Origin: Novakomyces olei
Taxonomy: Eukaryota
Direction of reading: 5' to 3'
NCBI GenBank assembly: GCA_016906335.1
Contig: JADEYG010000014.1
Span: forward strand, 1 to 17,798
DNA: 17,798 nt
The notes under the pieces are model-generated. The model saw only the letters and a program-made list of their open reading frames with translations, ran no database searches and was not told where the DNA came from. The translations under genes were made by a program, and so were the position numbers. Below, one piece after another: positions 5,801-17,798 of the stretch. Positions within the stretch are counted from its first letter, which is position 1. Every line of letters begins with the position of its first letter.

Positions 5801-6853
5801 AAAGCTTAAGAGTGCAGAATCCAAATGTTGTTTTTAATTGGTTGTTTTAAAAGATATAAACCAATATAAAAAAGAAACCGCGCGCAGTATCAAATAGACC
5901 AGTTTGATTGCAAGTACAGTCCCCTCGGCATTAGCCCTTTGAGCGTTCGTCACAGTTAACATCAAGTCGAGTAATGAAAAATCGAATTGCCTGAGCCCGT
6001 ACGAAAAATATCTTTTCTTAGTCGCAGGTAAAGTTGTTCGTCGAAAGTGGCGCACTCGTCCAGAATTGTCCGGCACAAAACTACTCAGTCTAGTCGCCAT
6101 AGCTGAAGTCATTTTCATATTGCTTTCATCAAATATATTGTTATATAAAAGCTCGATTTGTTCATCAATACTGTCAAGCACTGTGGATTCGAAATTGCTC
6201 AGGTTTTCCGTTTGTAAACAGACTCGATCAAACCCAAACTTCGTGACCCACGGTGGAATGTCTCTTTGATCGACATCACTTTCTGTTGCAGCACTGGGAA
6301 GGGTTATAAGGGTCTTTTCCAAGAACTTTCCTACAACGCCCTCCGCGGCTGAATTTGAGCTTGGTTTTAAACCATCTTTCGCAGCAACACGAAAATATTT
6401 CAGAAATTGATTCTCTGTAAAACAAGTTTGTAGGGGTGAACAAACAATATGATCTTTTGATGTTCGAACAGTATGTTCTTTTGAGATATGCTGCTCAATG
6501 ACCTTTCGCGATGATTGAAGCGCATATAGAAAAACTGCAGTAGTAGCCTTGGCAAACCTTAGAAATAATAACGGTTCAACCATTCACCGCAGGGCTCGGC
6601 GGCCTCCAATATTATTCAAAACAGGAGCGATATTCCACGTCGTTTGCCATTAATTACAGAAAGTCCAATTTGAAGTTCAGTACCTTAGCTTATCGCCTGA
6701 CGCAAATGCCTTTCGGCTGCCGTTGGTTCCAACCTCGGACCTTTACCATGCCCGACAGCCTTGCAAGCAACTACCTTTAAACCAAAGGCCTCTCGATTCC
6801 CAAGTACTCATGACTGAGATATCTGTTCAAGTCTTAATTACTACTAGAAACAT
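2831..6853 (-). pseudogene. TLH1: Telomere-linked RecQ-family helicase (TLH-type): OrsD/DUF3505-like Zn region + tyrosine-recombinase-like region + RecQ core + Cys-rich C-terminus; many frameshifts
   Basis: Frame-stitched minus-strand motifs: Walker A-like MGxGKT (~4340-4365, needs a 1-nt indel), LVVDECH (DECH at 4072-4083), LLSATLPP, GTGVDFQHVRLVVH and DYFQESGRAGRDG (3534-3572). Downstream are an RQC-type CRR...C...CDLC and a C-terminal CVLC..H..C / CYRCYLPQTIC / CQYSD, with stop at 2831. The N-terminus has QHISKEH...PLQTCF...YFRV...IPPW, typical of TLH proteins. The gene is transcribed toward the telomere and the start is approximate. Confidence 0.9.
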
Positions 6854-7346
6854 GCTGTAATCTATTTTCGATATAATGCGAATTATTATTAATAGTGTGA
6901 ATGTTCCCCTTTCCGTCGTCGCGATTTTTACCATATTTAACTGGAATTAATGCAGTAAATCTAACCCTCAAAACCCGTTTGACTATTTGTTATCCAATTC
7001 TTATTAGAATTAGCCGTAATTCGCGACGACGAGCAGCAAATTCACATGACCCCCCTCCCATACATTATTAATTTTCAAACTGGAATACGCCGTAATTTTA
7101 CGTAGAACACCCTAACAAAAATATAGCTAATAAAAACTACGATACATTATTTCGAATTACCGGCGTAATTCCGCGCAGAATATGTATAGGAAATGGCATG
7201 ACCCCCCCCCTCATACATAATTATCTTTTCGAAATGGAATTATGGCGTAAAGGAAAAAGCAAAAACCCTGACTAGAATTATACATAAAATAAGAATCACA
7301 TTACATAAAAATGGAATTTCGCCATAATTCCGGTTGAATTATCTAG
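6852..7346 (+). repeat. Subtelomeric composite repeat cluster 2 (modules A-B-B), directly upstream of the TLH gene
   Basis: 7190-7346 is nearly identical to 1800-1953. Module A has IR CGTCGTCGCGA/TCGCGACGACG (6914-6924/7021-7031). ATGCTGTAATC..TTTCGAT at 6852 matches 10436. Confidence 0.85.
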
Positions 7347-7891
7347 AGCCCATTGCCAGAGCAAAAGGAAACAGTACGAATTGGTCGTCGACCATGAACC
7401 TGCCGGGACATTTACAAACGTCCACATTGACCCTGTGGCGTACGGCAGTGTTATATTGGGATATCAGGAACGAAGGTAGTGCTGATGTGGCCTCCTACAG
7501 AAGTGAATCTAAGAACTTACAGGAATATCATCGTCTACTCCAGGGTCGGGTCATACCAAGACACCTCCCTACGTTAAAGCCTCCATTACAGTTGTTTGAG
7601 GAAAGGGATTTAGTTGAATATGGAACCGGGAACGCTTCACGCGGTTATCGCTGGTCTCGGACGTCGTTACTTGGATACAACTATGCCCGCGAAGGACTGT
7701 GAATGCCTTCAGCGAGTGGTCGATGGGCAAGGCCCAAGAAAGAGACCAGGGATCAAAAGCGCGGTGATACAGGCACCGGTATGGTGGGATTTTTACAGAG
7801 AGGTCTACGGGATCGGACCTACCAGGGACAGCGAAAAGAGGTGTTGTCGGGACTTACTCTCTTGGAGGGAGTAATGTCAGGGGTTGCTTAG
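7347..7891 (+). pseudogene. JmjC-domain (Fe(II)/2-oxoglutarate dioxygenase) coding segment at the 3' end of the LTR element; frameshifted
   Basis: Stitched across frames: PAGTFTNVHIDPVAYGSVILG-ISGTKVVLMWPPTEVNLRTY...MEPGTLHAVIA..RTSLLGYNYA. HxD is at 7423-7431, K at 7473-7475 and the distal H at 7638-7640. The last frame (ORF 7703-7891) stops inside the LTR. Confidence 0.8.
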
Positions 7892-8248
7892 AAAGGTGCT
7901 GGGAGCACTTGAATAAGCAACTCGTAGTTTAGTTAGTTAGTTTATTTAGTTGTATGTAGGAAGTTGCTTAGAGTAGCGCTTGGAGCGCAGACTCTAGCAC
8001 TTCTGCAATAAGTTAGTTACTTTAATAGTTTCGTAGAGTGGGATCTTCGGCACAGTAACGAGCCGAGCCCAAGTATAAGAAGAGGAGTTCTTTCTACTGG
8101 GTTCGGGGCGTTACAACAACCAAGGTTCCGCTTAATATAAAGTGTCTTGAGATTAGTTCTTCTATCTGCCTATCCTTTGCTACTCCCTGTCAAGCAACGT
8201 GTGACTTGGCCGACTTAAGATTACTTTGTATTGAGTCACCCCCTAACA
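7875..8248 (+). repeat. 3' LTR (374 bp) of the JmjC-carrying element
   Basis: TG...CA ends with imperfect terminal inverted repeat TGTCAGGGG/CCCCTAACA, an internal TATAAG at ~8074 and a PPT directly upstream. Confidence 0.8.
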
Positions 8249-8489
8249 TAGAGCTTATCAGCCCAGGAAAATCAACCTGCGCGAAAAAAGAAAACGTCAT
8301 CAGAGCAACTAGGAGACGAAAAATTCAGAAAAATAGACCCGCCTGCAGGAAATCCTTCTGGTGAAAGAAAATAAATCTTGAAGGGATCTCCAAAGAAAAA
8401 TTGAAGAAAATCCTTTCCCCCCTTTCCTTAAAAATGGGTCAAAGGAAAATATTAAACAGACCCAAAGGAGGCGTTAATCACATTGAAGT

Positions 8490-10000
8490 CCTGACATTGA
8501 GCCTCAAAATACAATGAAGCCATCACTGGGCCATTTGGGAATCAGTGGAAAGAAGCAATAAATAAAGAACTAAAAGCAATGGAAAGAAATGAAGTATGGA
8601 AAGTCGTTTCCCAATCACAAAATATACGTACAGTTGGATGCGATGGGTGGTTTAAACTGAAACAAGGAGAACAGTCGAATGAAATAATTAGAAAAGCAAG
8701 ACTAGTAGCACAAGGGTACTCACAGATTTTTGAAAAGACTATGGAAGATACATTACGCCCCAGTCGCTCGTCCTGAACAGCATTACCGGTTGGTTTTAGC
8801 TTACAGCGTAATTAAAAATTATGAAATCTATCAAATCGACGTGGATACAGCCTTCCTATATGTACACTAAAGGAGTCAGTGTACATGAAAAAACCCGATG
8901 GGAGTGAAATTAAAAAAACCCGGCCTTGTTCCTAAAATTAAACAAAAGTCTCTATGGTCTCAAACAGGCACCAAGATCGTGAACAGTGACTGGATTCTAC
9001 ATTGACAAAATACGGTCTAACAAATCAAACCAAAGATTCTGCCATATATTACAATGACTCTTAATTATTGCTGTCACGGTAGATGACCTCATGATCGTCG
9101 AAAAAAAGGAAGAGACTTGAATTTGAATCCTTTTTAAAATTTTTACTCCATCAAGTCACTTGGAAAAATAAAAGAGATATCTTGGTATGGACATTACATA
9201 TGACCGCGACAAAGGAATACTCCAAATTGTCACAGTCACAATTTGCTAAGTCAATTATACGCACTTACGGAGACCACTAACCTAAAATACATAAGTCAGC
9301 CCATCACAAACATCAATTCACTCTATCATCCCGCGGATGAAAATTATGATTGTCTGAAATCTATCCAACTATTATAGGAAAATTAATAAATTGACTGAAT
9401 GGACAAGACCAGACCTCAGATTTCAATAAGTATGTTAAGCAAACATACAAAAAGACAAAATGAAGAACAAATACAGGCCTTAAAACACACCATGAGAATC
9501 TAAAGCTACACTGGACACTGATCACCTACATAGAGAAAATGCAGATACACTCGTGGGGCGACTCTGATTTCGCCGGAGACACTTGCGACAGAAAATCCGA
9601 TCAGGGAATACGTTGTCTCACTAGGAAAAAAACGGCCCAATAGCCTGGAAACTCGGCAAAAGCAAAAAATTGTAAACCAGTACAATGATGGCGGATTCGA
9701 AGCTATGAAACTAACAGTCAATCAAGCCTTGTACTACAAATATCTAATGACGAAATTAATAAAGGGCCCGAAACATCCCAACGTCTACTCATAGACAACG
9801 CTGCATATACTTCAATAATGGTGGAAACTACCAGGTTCAAAACATCTAAGTAACACCTGCTACTATGTGATGGATATTGTGAGAAATGGACTGGTAAGCA
9901 TACAGAGATGCCCCTCACGAAACATGAGGCAGATGGATTGACCAAGAACCTACTTGGAAACAAATTCACTAAATTTACAAAATGCTATACAATGAAGAAT
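8490..10000 (+). pseudogene. pol: Ty1/copia pol fragment (reverse transcriptase + RNase H), frameshifted
   Basis: Motifs across frames: QWKEAINKELKAMERNEVW, KARLVAQGYSQ, YQIDVDTAFL, KSLYGLKQAPR, VDDL, YLGMDI, WTRPDL, DSDFAGD, PIAW..KQK. Boundaries are approximate. Confidence 0.9.
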
Positions 10001-10328: not shown

Positions 10329-10785
10329 TATTATATTATCAGATAACTATAATATGTGTAGCACATCTTGTATAATAAATATATTATATAAATACAACAA
10401 ACCCTACCCTTGCCGCCATTCTCTGCCCTGACATTATGCTGTAATCCTGGTTTCGATCTGACGCTCTTTTTATAGCCTCCAGCCTCCACTGTGAATTACC
10501 TTAACATACCCGCGCTTTTCCCATACATTAACGGCGCATTAGCCAGTAAAATCCGTCCCTGAAACCCCTCCTACAATTTCTACTGCATTTCTTATTTACA
10601 TTACGCCGTAATTCGCGCGTATGTTAAGGTAATTAGCATGAACCCCCCCCTCATACATTAATTTATTTTTGGACCGCATTACGCCGCAAAATCAAACCGA
10701 AAACCCTGTCCAATTTTCAATGCTATAATAATCACATAACAAAATTATTGATTTTGCGGCGTAATGCGCGCTGGAATATGTATAA
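10329..10785 (+). repeat. Subtelomeric composite repeat cluster 3 (modules C-A-B)
   Basis: 10329-10418 matches 1499-1590. It has a 16-bp IR (10494-10509/10619-10634) and a 21-bp IR (10675-10695/10748-10768), and ends GCGTAATGCGCGCTGGAATATGTA as at 2387-2410. Confidence 0.85.
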
Positions 10786-11036: not shown

Positions 11037-12103
11037 ATGATTGATAATGAGGAAATCGATGAAATGCGTTGAATTCCTCGTCCGCAGTTAATGATAAGTT
11101 TTCACGTCAGCGCCTTCAGGACTGCGTTTGAGCATGGATCCCGCTTGAAACGCCGGTGACCGTTGCATCCAGTCTGGAGTTAAGATATGCAATATACCAT
11201 CTGCGTTTATTCAGCGCAGTCATTATGCAAATTGCGGCTTATCTTGAGTTGTCGTCGCATCTATCATACAAAACAAAGGTGTTCTCGAGTTCAATGGAAC
11301 CCGTTGCCTACCGAATGATCCCATTCAGGTGGGGAAATAGTTGTATATAGTTGATGGTAAGTCGCAGATGAGAGGATGTTTAGACTGACTGTTTAGAAGA
11401 TGCAGAAGAACTGAGACCGCAAGAGGGACCCGAATCAAAAAGCAAAGCAAGGCCTTTTCGAAATTTACATCTTGATGAGCTTACGTCGACGTACAGCAAG
11501 TCTTCACGGAGCTCATACGGACAGGTAGGGGAGGAAGAAATTTTCTTTGGTACTCACATGAACTAGAATCGTTCAGGGGAGCGTTTGGATGATGAGAGAT
11601 GGCGGCTGTCTAGTGTTTGGTGAGTTTGGAGAAGACAGATGTGAGGCCTGCCATATTATTCCCAAATCGCGCGGAAATTATGTATGTTTGACCGGAAACC
11701 TAAGTTTTTAGAGTTGTTGCTTACCTGTCTCAGCTTTTGCACGGAATCCTTGAGCTAGCATAGCTGACGCTTTCGATATCATTTCTGTGCAGAACGGACT
11801 GTTTCTTTCCTATGAACTGCACAAATACTTCGACAAGTATATGTTGGTATTATTGTCCGGTAAGACAGTATACTGGAGATTAGAGTACTTAAAATTACCA
11901 GGAACAGAGGTTTTCGAAATTCATTGTTTGTGCCGAAGGACAATTTGTTGGACTATCACGGAAAGCAGCTTCTACTAAATCCGAGGTTTAAAAAATACTG
12001 GCCCCGTAAAGAGTTTCTTGACTGGCATTACCGTCAATGCGTGATGGCCAGACTTCGAAGACATTCTTCATTCATGAGCGCCAGAACAGGCATGATTTCA
12101 TGA
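11037..12103 (+). pseudogene. HNH endonuclease (HNH_2 / Crinkler-type HNH family), intron-containing, disrupted
   Basis: Stitched protein: ...MRDGGCLVFG...CEACHIIPKSRG...SVQNGLFLSYELHKYFDKY...DYHGKQL...WPRKEFLDWHYRQCVMARLR. GT-AG introns at 11357-11396, 11525-11566, 11682-11733 and 11860-11901. The start is uncertain (possibly near 10924), and there are several indels and stops. Confidence 0.8.
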
Positions 12104-15230: not shown

Positions 15231-16077
15231 TCATACCATGGATACTGCAAAACCTCTAAATCTCGTCAATACACATTGTGTGTAATGCCAGCGTAGAAGA
15301 GGAGGGTAAGGCTTATCACGGTCGCGAACTAAATCTATGAACATGATCTCCTTTCCGTGATATTCAGATACATCATCTAGAAATGAATGAACATAATATC
15401 GTCCATTCTCAACCCAGATACCAAAGACATATCGATCGAAAGCTTTATGCAATGAAGAACTGAGGGTCAGCCCGTTTCTCAACGCTGTACAAACCAACAC
15501 GACCCTGAGTAAGCTCAAATAAAAAGTTTTGGCCAAGGCTGTAGGGAATGATATGGCACGCTTCATTATAGTTTATATTTCTTTGGCCGCTGACCATACA
15601 GCGACCAAAATCGCGTATGAAGCATTCGAGACGAAATTGTGTTTGTCTTTGCGAGCTCCTCGAAGAACTACTTACGGTCGACAAACTATCAGTAACTGGG
15701 AGCGTTCGCATTCGCGATTTGCTCTGAGGTCCTGGTCAAAAGTTAATCTCGTAAGATGCAGGCTCGGCTAATATATACGTGGTCGGTAAAATTTCCGCAT
15801 CTGACTCGCATGATCCTTCATCGCAACATAACTTGATCGTCTCAGGTGCGTTCGTAATGGACGCAACGATAACTTCATAGAGATACTGAACCTTTTTCAC
15901 ACTGGCAAGTTTGGCACTAGCACAGAACTCAAAAGGCAGCTGAATAATCAGCTTGTTGTCGGAATTAACAATTTTGATGGTAAGGATGCTAGCCCAACTC
16001 TCCACAGAGGTTTTGTAAGTAGTCTCGTACAGCGGTTCACAAGACATTGTAGATTTAGTGCTCCAGCAGTCAATCAA
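15231..16077 (-). pseudogene. HNH endonuclease paralogue, intronless, two 1-nt frameshifts (possibly an intact CDS)
   Basis: ORFs 15736-16077, 15445-15711 and 15231-15566 join into ...QFRLECFIRDFGRCMVSG...EACHIIPYSLG...YSVE-NGLTLSSSLHKAFDRY...EYHGKEI...PYPPLLRWHYTQCVLTRFRG. The likely ATG is at ~16047. Confidence 0.85.
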
Positions 16078-16287: not shown

Positions 16288-16680
16288 CTATCTATTATTG
16301 CTAGCGACATTTTGATGTATGTCAAGACTGAGAAAACCCTTATCACTGATATTTTGGCAAAATGTCAGAGCGCGCTAGTAGATTACCCATATATTAAACA
16401 GCAAAAAAAATCACTTTCGCAGCAATATCAATGAAGGAGACATTCTATTGGATAAAACGGCAGGGCTAGCTGACATTTCGCAGCAATATTGATAGGTTGA
16501 GGATGTTTTATGAATACATATAGATTTCATTCATTGCCTTTAGGGCGAGGGTATATATTTTATAAAGATCATATTGCAAAGTGCATTTGCATATTTTATA
16601 TTTATTTGATAATAATATACTATAGATATAGCCTACCTGAATAAATATCCGTCTTGACTTAAGTCCAGGAATATGTATAG
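16288..16680 (-). repeat. Diverged inverted copy of modules C+D, with a B-type terminus on the + strand
   Basis: The reverse complement aligns with ~1983-2386 (CCTATCAATATT, TATCCAATAG, GTTTAATATATGG, AAATATCAGTGATA(A)GGGTTTTCTC, AAATGTCGCTAGYAATAATAGMTAG). The right end GGAATATGTATAG is at 16668-16680. Confidence 0.8.
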
Positions 16681-16716: not shown

Positions 16717-17798
16717 ATGGAGCATGATGCTTACTATGAATTTGGGCCTATTTTGGACGTGACAGAATACAATACAGTATTGAGCGTCTTTGGTATTTGG
16801 CTGAGATTGAAGATTTTACTTATTCTGTTTTTAGGTCTATCTGTTGTAGTCTTTGGACTGGCTTCAAAATTCGTGAAGCATCGTCTTTTTATCAATGAGC
16901 CCCGTAAGCCAAATCTTTAGAAAAACCCGTAATAATTTGTGCAGTCATTTATTTCCTTGTTGGGATCGCGCTTGGTCCGGAAGGCGCCAATTTCATTCGG
17001 CCATCATCGTGGGGCCCTGTTGACCAGATTACTCATGTAATATAAACGACTTTTTGGTTTAATATCGGTGATCTCTCTGACATTGAAGGGATTGGCCCGT
17101 CTGGTTCTCGGCATTCAGCTTTTCATCATTGGGATTGATCTACCGGCACAATTTATTTACCGGCAGTGGAAAAGTCTTGCAGTCCTTTTGCTTCGTATGT
17201 TTTATTTAATATTCAAATGCTCACATTTTAGCGTGTATGACGTTGACTTGGATAATTGCGTCAATAATTATCTATCTCTGTTTTAATATACAAAAGTTCG
17301 TAAGTTTTGTTTCATTATTGAAAACGCTATTTACCTTCTTTCTGACTCTACATAGTTACATGCTATGATCATTGGAGCTTGTGTCACCCCAACTGATCCT
17401 GTCTTATCAAACTCAATTGTGACAGGCGAATTTGCGGAAAAAAATGTCCCCTTAATTTTGCGTCATATTGTTGTTACAGAGGCAGGAGCCAATGATGGTA
17501 GGCACTGTACAAGCAGACTGGAAAGCTTACAGTTAGGTTTTGCTTACCCGTTCCTATTTCTTGCTATATACTTGGCAGATTATAGAGATGGACATTCTAC
17601 CGGACTTTGGTTTGTCAATACAGTCATCTACGAGGTTGTATTCTCCGTTGTTTATGGTTTTTGCGTTGGATATCTGTTCAAGCAATTTCTGTATTTTGCA
17701 GCACGACGTGATTTGGTGGACAGAGAATCATTTGTAATTTTCGCAGTTGCAACTTCACTTTCTATCTTGGGAACAGCGGGCATGATAGGAACAGATGA
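16717..17798 (+). CDS. Fungal CPA1-family Na+(K+)/H+ antiporter (Nha1/Sod2-related), 5' part; continues beyond window
   Basis: Intact spliced frame MEHDAYYEFGPILDV...LFINEPLIYFLVGIALGP...GACVTPTDPVLSNSIVTGEFAEKNVPLILRHIVVTEAGANDGFAYPFLFLA...VDRESF...GMIGTD. GT-AG introns at 16793-16834, 16904-16944, 17037-17088, 17195-17231, 17300-17355 and 17498-17536. Confidence 0.95.

Follow-up and report, generated by a model that had tools for sequence, protein, structure and literature searches.

The segment at 7347-7874 of the window, a stretch of 17,798 nucleotides that was analyzed as a whole, is the 3' internal region of a long terminal repeat (LTR) retrotransposon, of which a dead 3' end remains. 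The leading explanation, on which confidence is evenly divided, is that the region preceding the polypurine tract (PPT) derives from a gene for a JmjC/cupin-type 2-oxoglutarate (2OG) oxygenase. The structural half of this explanation, namely the LTR, the PPT, the junctions and the internal position of the segment, is well supported, and the JmjC ancestry, as judged from short sequence motifs and one targeted statistic, is moderately supported. Within that ancestry, it is most likely that Thr-x-x-His-x-Asp and Gly-x-Lys are retained at KDM2A-like spacing, and a second His is probably retained at such spacing as well. The present copy is dead and cannot work, since it is without the N-terminal part of the fold, gag-pol and a 5' LTR, and its frame changes at least four times as assembled. 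Captured gene fragments are common in LTR elements, and the element may simply carry one of these. As for its history, an LTR element would have inserted in a Copia pol gene and would later have lost everything 5' of 7347, which would have left a junction with a subtelomeric repeat, here termed repeat Y. The features concerned are collected in Table 1.

Table 1. Retrotransposon tail, JmjC-like motif blocks and flanking sequences in the window
Feature	Position	Strand	Details
Subtelomeric repeat Y copy	about 6997-7346	+	Fixed right end truncates the element
5'-truncated 3' internal region with JmjC-like motifs	7347-7874	+	528 bp; delimited by repeat-Y copies and related-contig ends
Block 1, Thr-x-x-His-x-Asp (T-N-V-H-I-D)	7399-7431	+	Frame of 7330; candidate first two metal ligands and 2OG-binding Thr
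Block 2, Gly-x-Lys, hydrophobic strand, Pro-Pro (G-T-K-V-V-L-M-W-P-P-T)	7467-7514	+	Frame of 7329; candidate 2OG-binding Lys
Block 3, Gly-x-x-His-Ala-Val context (M-E-P-G-T-L-H-A-V)	7620-7646	+	Frame of 7329; candidate second His
Block 4, L-G-Y-N-Y	7670-7684	+	Frame of 7328
Polypurine tract	7864-7874	+	10/11 purines, one T; adjoins the LTR
3' LTR	7875-8248	+	374 bp; TG...CA; inverted repeat in 8/9 terminal bases; related contigs break at both ends
Copia pol fragment, start	8249-8773	+	Insertion target of the LTR element; RVT_2 match 8588-8761, Pfam E 6.5e-8

The window begins at a chromosome end, as follows from degenerate CCCTAA-type telomere repeats at 1-150, whose C-run lengths are irregular, and from a 15-nt satellite at about 390-1240 that consists of more than 20 copies of CCATACATTATT-type units. 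Farther inward, two ORF groups of opposite orientation match the HNH_2 endonuclease domain, one at 11754-11975 (+; E 1e-5) and the other at 15234-15735 (-; E 5.8e-6), and the latter match is divided between two overlapping frames, which marks a frameshift or else an error of assembly. Most of the window's mosaic is flanked by two inverted repeats 14 kb apart (2095-2314 and 16318-16519), which are about 220 bp long and 72-79% alike, and the longest open frame of the window, with 249 codons at 5834-6583 (-), is without a Pfam match. Near the inner edge, an open frame at 17356-17796 (+) that runs off the window end matches the Na+/H+ exchanger transmembrane family (PF00999, E 7.8e-7) and is likely to be the outermost ordinary host gene, next to the subtelomere. 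Copia, the two HNH_2 ORFs and this exchanger fragment would be in keeping with a fungus.

Contigs of four public sequencing runs were aligned to 6500-9500. The best-matching runs have just 0.07-0.18 of the window's words, and their contigs are taken as evidence of junctions and continuity, not of habitat, strain or copy number. Contig pieces from run X1 differ from the window by 52 gap letters and 35 substitutions over 1386 aligned bases and those from run X2 by 120 gap letters and 63 substitutions over 2811, and across runs X1-X3 gap letters amount to approximately 1.5-2 per substitution. This excess of gap letters, together with the irregular C-runs of the telomere repeat, which hint at homopolymer errors, and the spread of one HNH_2 domain across two frames, suggests that the window belongs to a long-read assembly prone to indel errors. 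Frame breaks in the JmjC-like segment are therefore no proof of decay, and a reading that passes through them is no proof of an open frame; those in 7347-7874 may be assembly errors. Over this region, a related 349-nt contig across 7350-7685 is unlike the window in 6 letters and 11 gap letters (record 10).

The LTR, which the original prediction had placed at these same coordinates with a purine run before it, is real, and three hallmarks of an LTR retrotransposon, TG...CA ends, inverted termini and an adjoining PPT, are present. Both of its edges are marked by related contigs, one with 87 unlike bases 5' of 7875 (record 22) and another that extends for 69 unlike bases 3' of 8248 (record 23). 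The last three bases of the PPT, TAA, form the stop codon of the ORF at 7614-7874 in the frame of 7329. On the right-hand side, the Copia sequence of three runs goes leftwards beyond 8249 into other DNA with no LTR (records 5, 15 and 24); because Copia pol lies 3' of the LTR here and continues without it in related runs, the LTR element is considered to have inserted into a Copia copy. The sequence left of the LTR is not Copia, and the 5-base flanks of the LTR (AGTAA vs TAGAG) show no target-site duplication. The LTR occurs once in the window, and a second copy, a primer-binding site and the 5' part of the element are absent from it. A solo LTR within Copia is ruled out, given that the PPT adjoins the LTR, the left flank is not Copia and the target-site duplication is lacking.

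Contigs from related runs cover 7350-7685, 7598-7723, 7613-7840 and 7740-7869, and run X2 contains two variants of the last interval, both of which stop at the LTR edge (records 11 and 12). As related contigs extend across the segment up to this edge, the arrangement is not private to the present assembly. The PPT at the LTR, the clean Copia right flank, the non-Copia left flank without a target-site duplication and the related contigs jointly place 7347-7874 inside the element, and they bear out the earlier view that the segment is part of an LTR element and not a host gene beside a solo LTR. Contig depths in run X2, which are rough measures, are 15-22 over the segment vs 21-30 in the flanks; depth over the segment thus approximates that of its surroundings, and the element is not a high-copy family in this run.

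At its 5' side the element is cut by repeat Y, a sequence of about 450 bp found in three copies of the same orientation, the other two lying at 1499-1953 and 10329-10782. Self-BLAST aligns 1798-1953 with 7188-7346 at 91% and 1499-1947 with 10329-10779 at 71%. The right end of the repeat is constant, and the flank beyond it is a different one in each of window copy 1, window copy 2 and a related contig, which means that the internal region starts abruptly at 7347; the start proposed from inspection of the DNA coincides with this left edge at the repeat Y junction, 7346/7347. The JmjC-like domain is consequently cut 5' at 7347, about 17 codons ahead of the Thr/His motif. Pfam searches of 45 ORFs or pieces revealed no gag, reverse transcriptase (RT), RNase H or integrase of the LTR element in the window, where the sole retroelement match is the Copia RVT_2 domain 3' of the LTR, and pieces of 7328-7891 gave no Pfam match to a chromodomain, rve (integrase) or RT. 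Copies of repeat Y, which may be a transposon end or a recombination unit, bracket the block formed by the retrotransposon tail and the Copia fragment.

The account that competes most strongly with JmjC ancestry is chance resemblance, in which an ordinary non-coding or otherwise-coding retrotransposon tail happens to offer motifs that were picked from three frames; it is considered somewhat unlikely. The four motif strings of the original prediction are present where it had located them, distributed over three frames. The candidate ligand codons are Thr 7414, His 7423, Asp 7429, Lys 7473 and, for the second His, 7638. Measured from the first His, Thr lies at -3, Asp at +2, Lys at 50 nt (about +17 codons) and the second His at 215 nt (about +72 codons), and this spacing equals, as had been claimed, that of T209, H212, D214, K229 and H284 in KDM2A, residues whose roles are found in print. 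The metal is held in KDM2A by H212, D214 and H284 (PMC4197961) and the C5 carboxylate of 2OG by T209 and K229, and W282, I283, A285 and V286 surround H284 (PMC11168414). Three co-linear blocks in the right order and with the spacing of a specific JmjC subfamily argue against chance. The same holds for the ligand pattern (T..H.[DE], then G.K 15-18 codons on, then G..H.[VI] 65-85 codons on), which, when read with free choice of frame, has a single occurrence in the actual window, at 7423, and appears in 0/400 shuffled windows, the pattern having been set after the data were seen. A rough estimate from residue frequencies gives about 0.003 chance occurrences per window, which implies many of them across a scan of about 250,000 windows.

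The continuity of the reading is limited. Motifs are joined only by switching frame at least four times within 320 nt, with three frames in use, which is more than the "few 1-nt indels" originally described, although some of these changes are possibly assembly errors. With its start at 7347 and at least four frame changes, the segment does not contain a complete double-stranded beta-helix in a single open frame. Between the Lys block and the second His, the best-fitting frame is that of 7328, which is open for 124 codons over most of the segment, so that another, different reading of the segment is possible. It had also been stated that the last frame runs through the PPT into the LTR; this is true of the frame at 7703-7891, whereas the frame of the second His stops at TAA 7872-7874, before the LTR.

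A targeted profile test that tolerates frameshifts provides the statistic on which JmjC ancestry partly rests. PF02373 searches of prokaryote genomes, which gave matches in 2/5, then 10/301 (E <= 1e-6) and then 0/401 (E <= 1e-8) genomes, yielded 14 loci; no KDM-type JmjC was found in these genomes, the matches being Cupin_8-like only, at 24-34 bits. Eleven ORFs from these loci were aligned, and the alignment recognizes JMJD5, FIH, JMJD7, TYW5-like, JMJD6 and KDM7 structures and drew in 120 Cupin_8/JmjC proteins, and profiles were built from 13 (bacterial) and 120 sequences. Each profile was compared with DNA by a local dynamic programme in which codons are matched and both gaps and frameshifts are allowed (penalties 5, 0.5 and 6 bits). 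Within the first half of the segment (7347-7512), the 120-sequence profile aligned to 7399-7511 across one frameshift with 24.6 bits, a score reached by 0/5000 dinucleotide shuffles (mean 11.0, sd 1.9, max 21.7) and equivalent to a Gumbel-fit P of about 6.5e-5 per 166-nt region; the reversed-profile decoy scored 12.9. This alignment includes His-x-Asp and the candidate 2OG-binding Lys (7423-7431 and 7473), as in JmjC/cupin oxygenases, where the Lys lies about 15-17 residues after the His-x-Asp/Glu motif. A scan of 426 tiles on both strands ranked 7388-7553 first at 25.7, with 19.0 for the next unrelated tile, and the 13-sequence profile also scored best here (24.1 vs 16.6 for the next tile). 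The segment is accordingly the window's best place for two independent JmjC profiles, which is a further point against chance resemblance. In favor of chance, the window-wide P of the first half alone is about 0.03 (6.5e-5 x 426 tiles), and this is before the many recognizable families are counted.

The second half (7513-7874) is at chance level when scored with the same profiles, which are Cupin_8-type and not KDM2-type: it obtained 12.0 and 11.8 bits, which 1644 and 1658 of 5000 shuffles reached, and for a narrower interval, chosen from the distance expected between Lys and second His, the score was reached by 2430 and 2977 of 5000. The Cupin_8 profiles give weight to a Trp-Trp-His block that is absent from the window. 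HMMER scoring of a script-made read-through, with X at the breaks and breakpoints picked with the JmjC hypothesis in mind, gave 5-12 bits against the same Cupin_8 profiles (E 0.1-15 at Pfam-wide Z). Both results, the chance-level C-terminal half and the low read-through scores, favor chance resemblance. Looser gap and frameshift penalties were set aside, as 2-11 of 1000-2000 shuffles then reach the real score, and the resulting alignments drift to a Trp-Trp at 7782 without a His.

Database searches likewise fail to name the domain, which is again a point in favor of chance resemblance. Pfam hmmscan returned no JmjC or Cupin_8 match at E <= 10 for 5/5 single-frame pieces, and phmmer against the PDB returned no JmjC chain for 4/4 pieces; matches to Vpx, a peptidase, NalC, P450 and fibronectin-type binders are due to chance only. 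Word-index searches of 5.8 billion clusters with 7330-7476 and 7614-7874 found no relative. When the 49-residue piece at 7330-7476 was run exhaustively with HMMER against 1.84 billion representatives, two matches resulted at E <= 0.001, neither of which is a relative: both are repeat proteins aligned through several stretches, one being FG-GAP by Pfam, with the same 7-residue word many times over, and the other without a meaningful Pfam match. The presence of the strongest 7-residue word in unrelated FG-GAP repeats too is consistent with chance. ESM Atlas searches with 7330-7476 and the 118-codon frame of 7328 gave no usable match, RasGEF-like rows at 0.77-0.81 falling below the trust level of the tool, and neither a relative nor a match came from scans of metagenomes for back-translated peptides and for a 30-nt LTR word. 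Among about 15 billion predicted proteins there is thus no relative of the segment, and hence no sign of a conserved element-borne enzyme family. The in-frame pieces are merely 14-35 residues long, so that these failed searches count little against the JmjC reading. The original identification as JmjC is supported for the His-x-Asp/Lys half, which beats the shuffles, and is not supported for the second-His half; searches in Pfam, PDB and HMMER were negative, and the frameshift-tolerant scan, a kind of search proposed with that identification, recovered the first half only.

It is distinctly unlikely that intact copies of the element produce an active JmjC enzyme, be it a demethylase or a hydroxylase, that lies in frame with integrase or immediately behind it and works against silencing by heterochromatin. 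The segment occupies the place of the chromodomain in chromoviruses, immediately 5' of the PPT, an ORF stops precisely at the LTR, and all four or five ligand positions appear filled as read, each of which would fit such an enzyme; yet the window holds no adjacent pol, and run X2, by its rough contig depths, no high-copy family. Capture of chromatin enzymes by retrotransposons is known, for example that of DNA methyltransferases (DNMTs) (PMC5890265). The protein collections searched contain no relatives of the segment, though these would be expected from a spread, intact element-borne ORF. Nor does the partial full-text literature covered, main texts only, describe an LTR retrotransposon that has a JmjC domain or contain a paper on such an element. 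An improbable proposal is that of a lineage-restricted LTR family with an intact KDM2/KDM7-like JmjC frame before the PPT, which would strip the element's own repressive histone methylation; the frame breaks would then be long-read assembly errors and the 5' truncation specific to the present copy. A host JmjC gene or pseudogene merely beside an LTR, whether this is solo or forms the border of some unrelated element, is highly improbable. In its favor are the low copy number of the segment in run X2 and the single LTR without a target-site duplication; against it are the PPT adjoining the LTR, the left side of the LTR, where a solo LTR in Copia would have Copia and this one does not, and the two variants of 7740-7869 in run X2, each of which stops where the LTR begins.

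For a retrotransposon tail derived from a JmjC/cupin-type oxygenase gene, the closest enzymes appear to be KDM2A/KDM7 by motif spacing and JMJD5-like Cupin_8 proteins by testable similarity. In KDM2A and KDM7 (JHDM1-type), Thr, His, Asp, Lys and the second His follow one another in the same order and at the same distances. Around the second His, KDM2A reads Trp-Ile-His-Ala-Val and the window Leu-His-Ala-Val, which is nearer to it than to Trp-Trp-His. In contrast, Y222 of KDM2A has no counterpart at +10 in the window, the window segment lacks the N-terminal half of the fold, and no sequence search links the two. With JMJD5/KDM8-like Cupin_8 proteins (PF13621), which are bacterial and animal, the His-x-Asp and Lys blocks of the segment align significantly. 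However, counted from the first His, the Cupin_8 profiles have the Lys at about 15-16 residues and the second His at about 79-81, compared with about 17 and 72 in the window, their Trp-Trp-His block is absent in the window, and the C-terminal half is not significant.

Among mobile elements, the closest by analogy would be chromoviruses in architecture and DNMT-capturing retrotransposons in concept. Chromoviruses (Ty3/gypsy) carry a chromatin module, a chromodomain at the integrase end, in the last part of pol (PMC3248453). They are alike in having an extra module, here a candidate chromatin module, at the extreme 3' internal end before the PPT, whereas 7347-7874 has no chromodomain, integrase or RT match. 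Cytosine methyltransferases have been taken up by retrotransposons (de Mendoza et al. 2018, PMC5890265), which sets a precedent for a captured chromatin-modifying enzyme. The enzyme class is a different one and the lineages are dinoflagellates and charophytes; coding capacity was shown there, compared with motifs alone here. Epe1 of S. pombe, encoded by a host gene, is an anti-heterochromatin factor with a JmjC fold, and VANC of Arabidopsis VANDAL21 is an anti-silencing protein that is encoded by a DNA transposon and is not JmjC. Both could serve as functional analogies only for a candidate element-borne JmjC protein.

If the enzyme reading is true, His 7423, Asp 7429 and His 7638 would coordinate an Fe(II) center, and Thr 7414 and Lys 7473 would bind 2OG. 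The enzyme would then act on a methyl-lysine in a histone or on some other protein side chain, and repressive marks around the element would be removed. Such an enzymatic identity would be drawn from the motifs of half a domain, and the anti-silencing role of the element is purely conjectural. As seen, the sequence is a dead, truncated tail with motif-level similarity, a lead set on a sound structural frame. Should intact copies code for a JmjC enzyme, the retrotransposon would bring along an oxygenase of its own that acts on histones or other proteins, and would counter silencing by a means so far known by analogy only, from chromodomains used for targeting, from DNMTs that were captured and from VANC, which a DNA transposon encodes.
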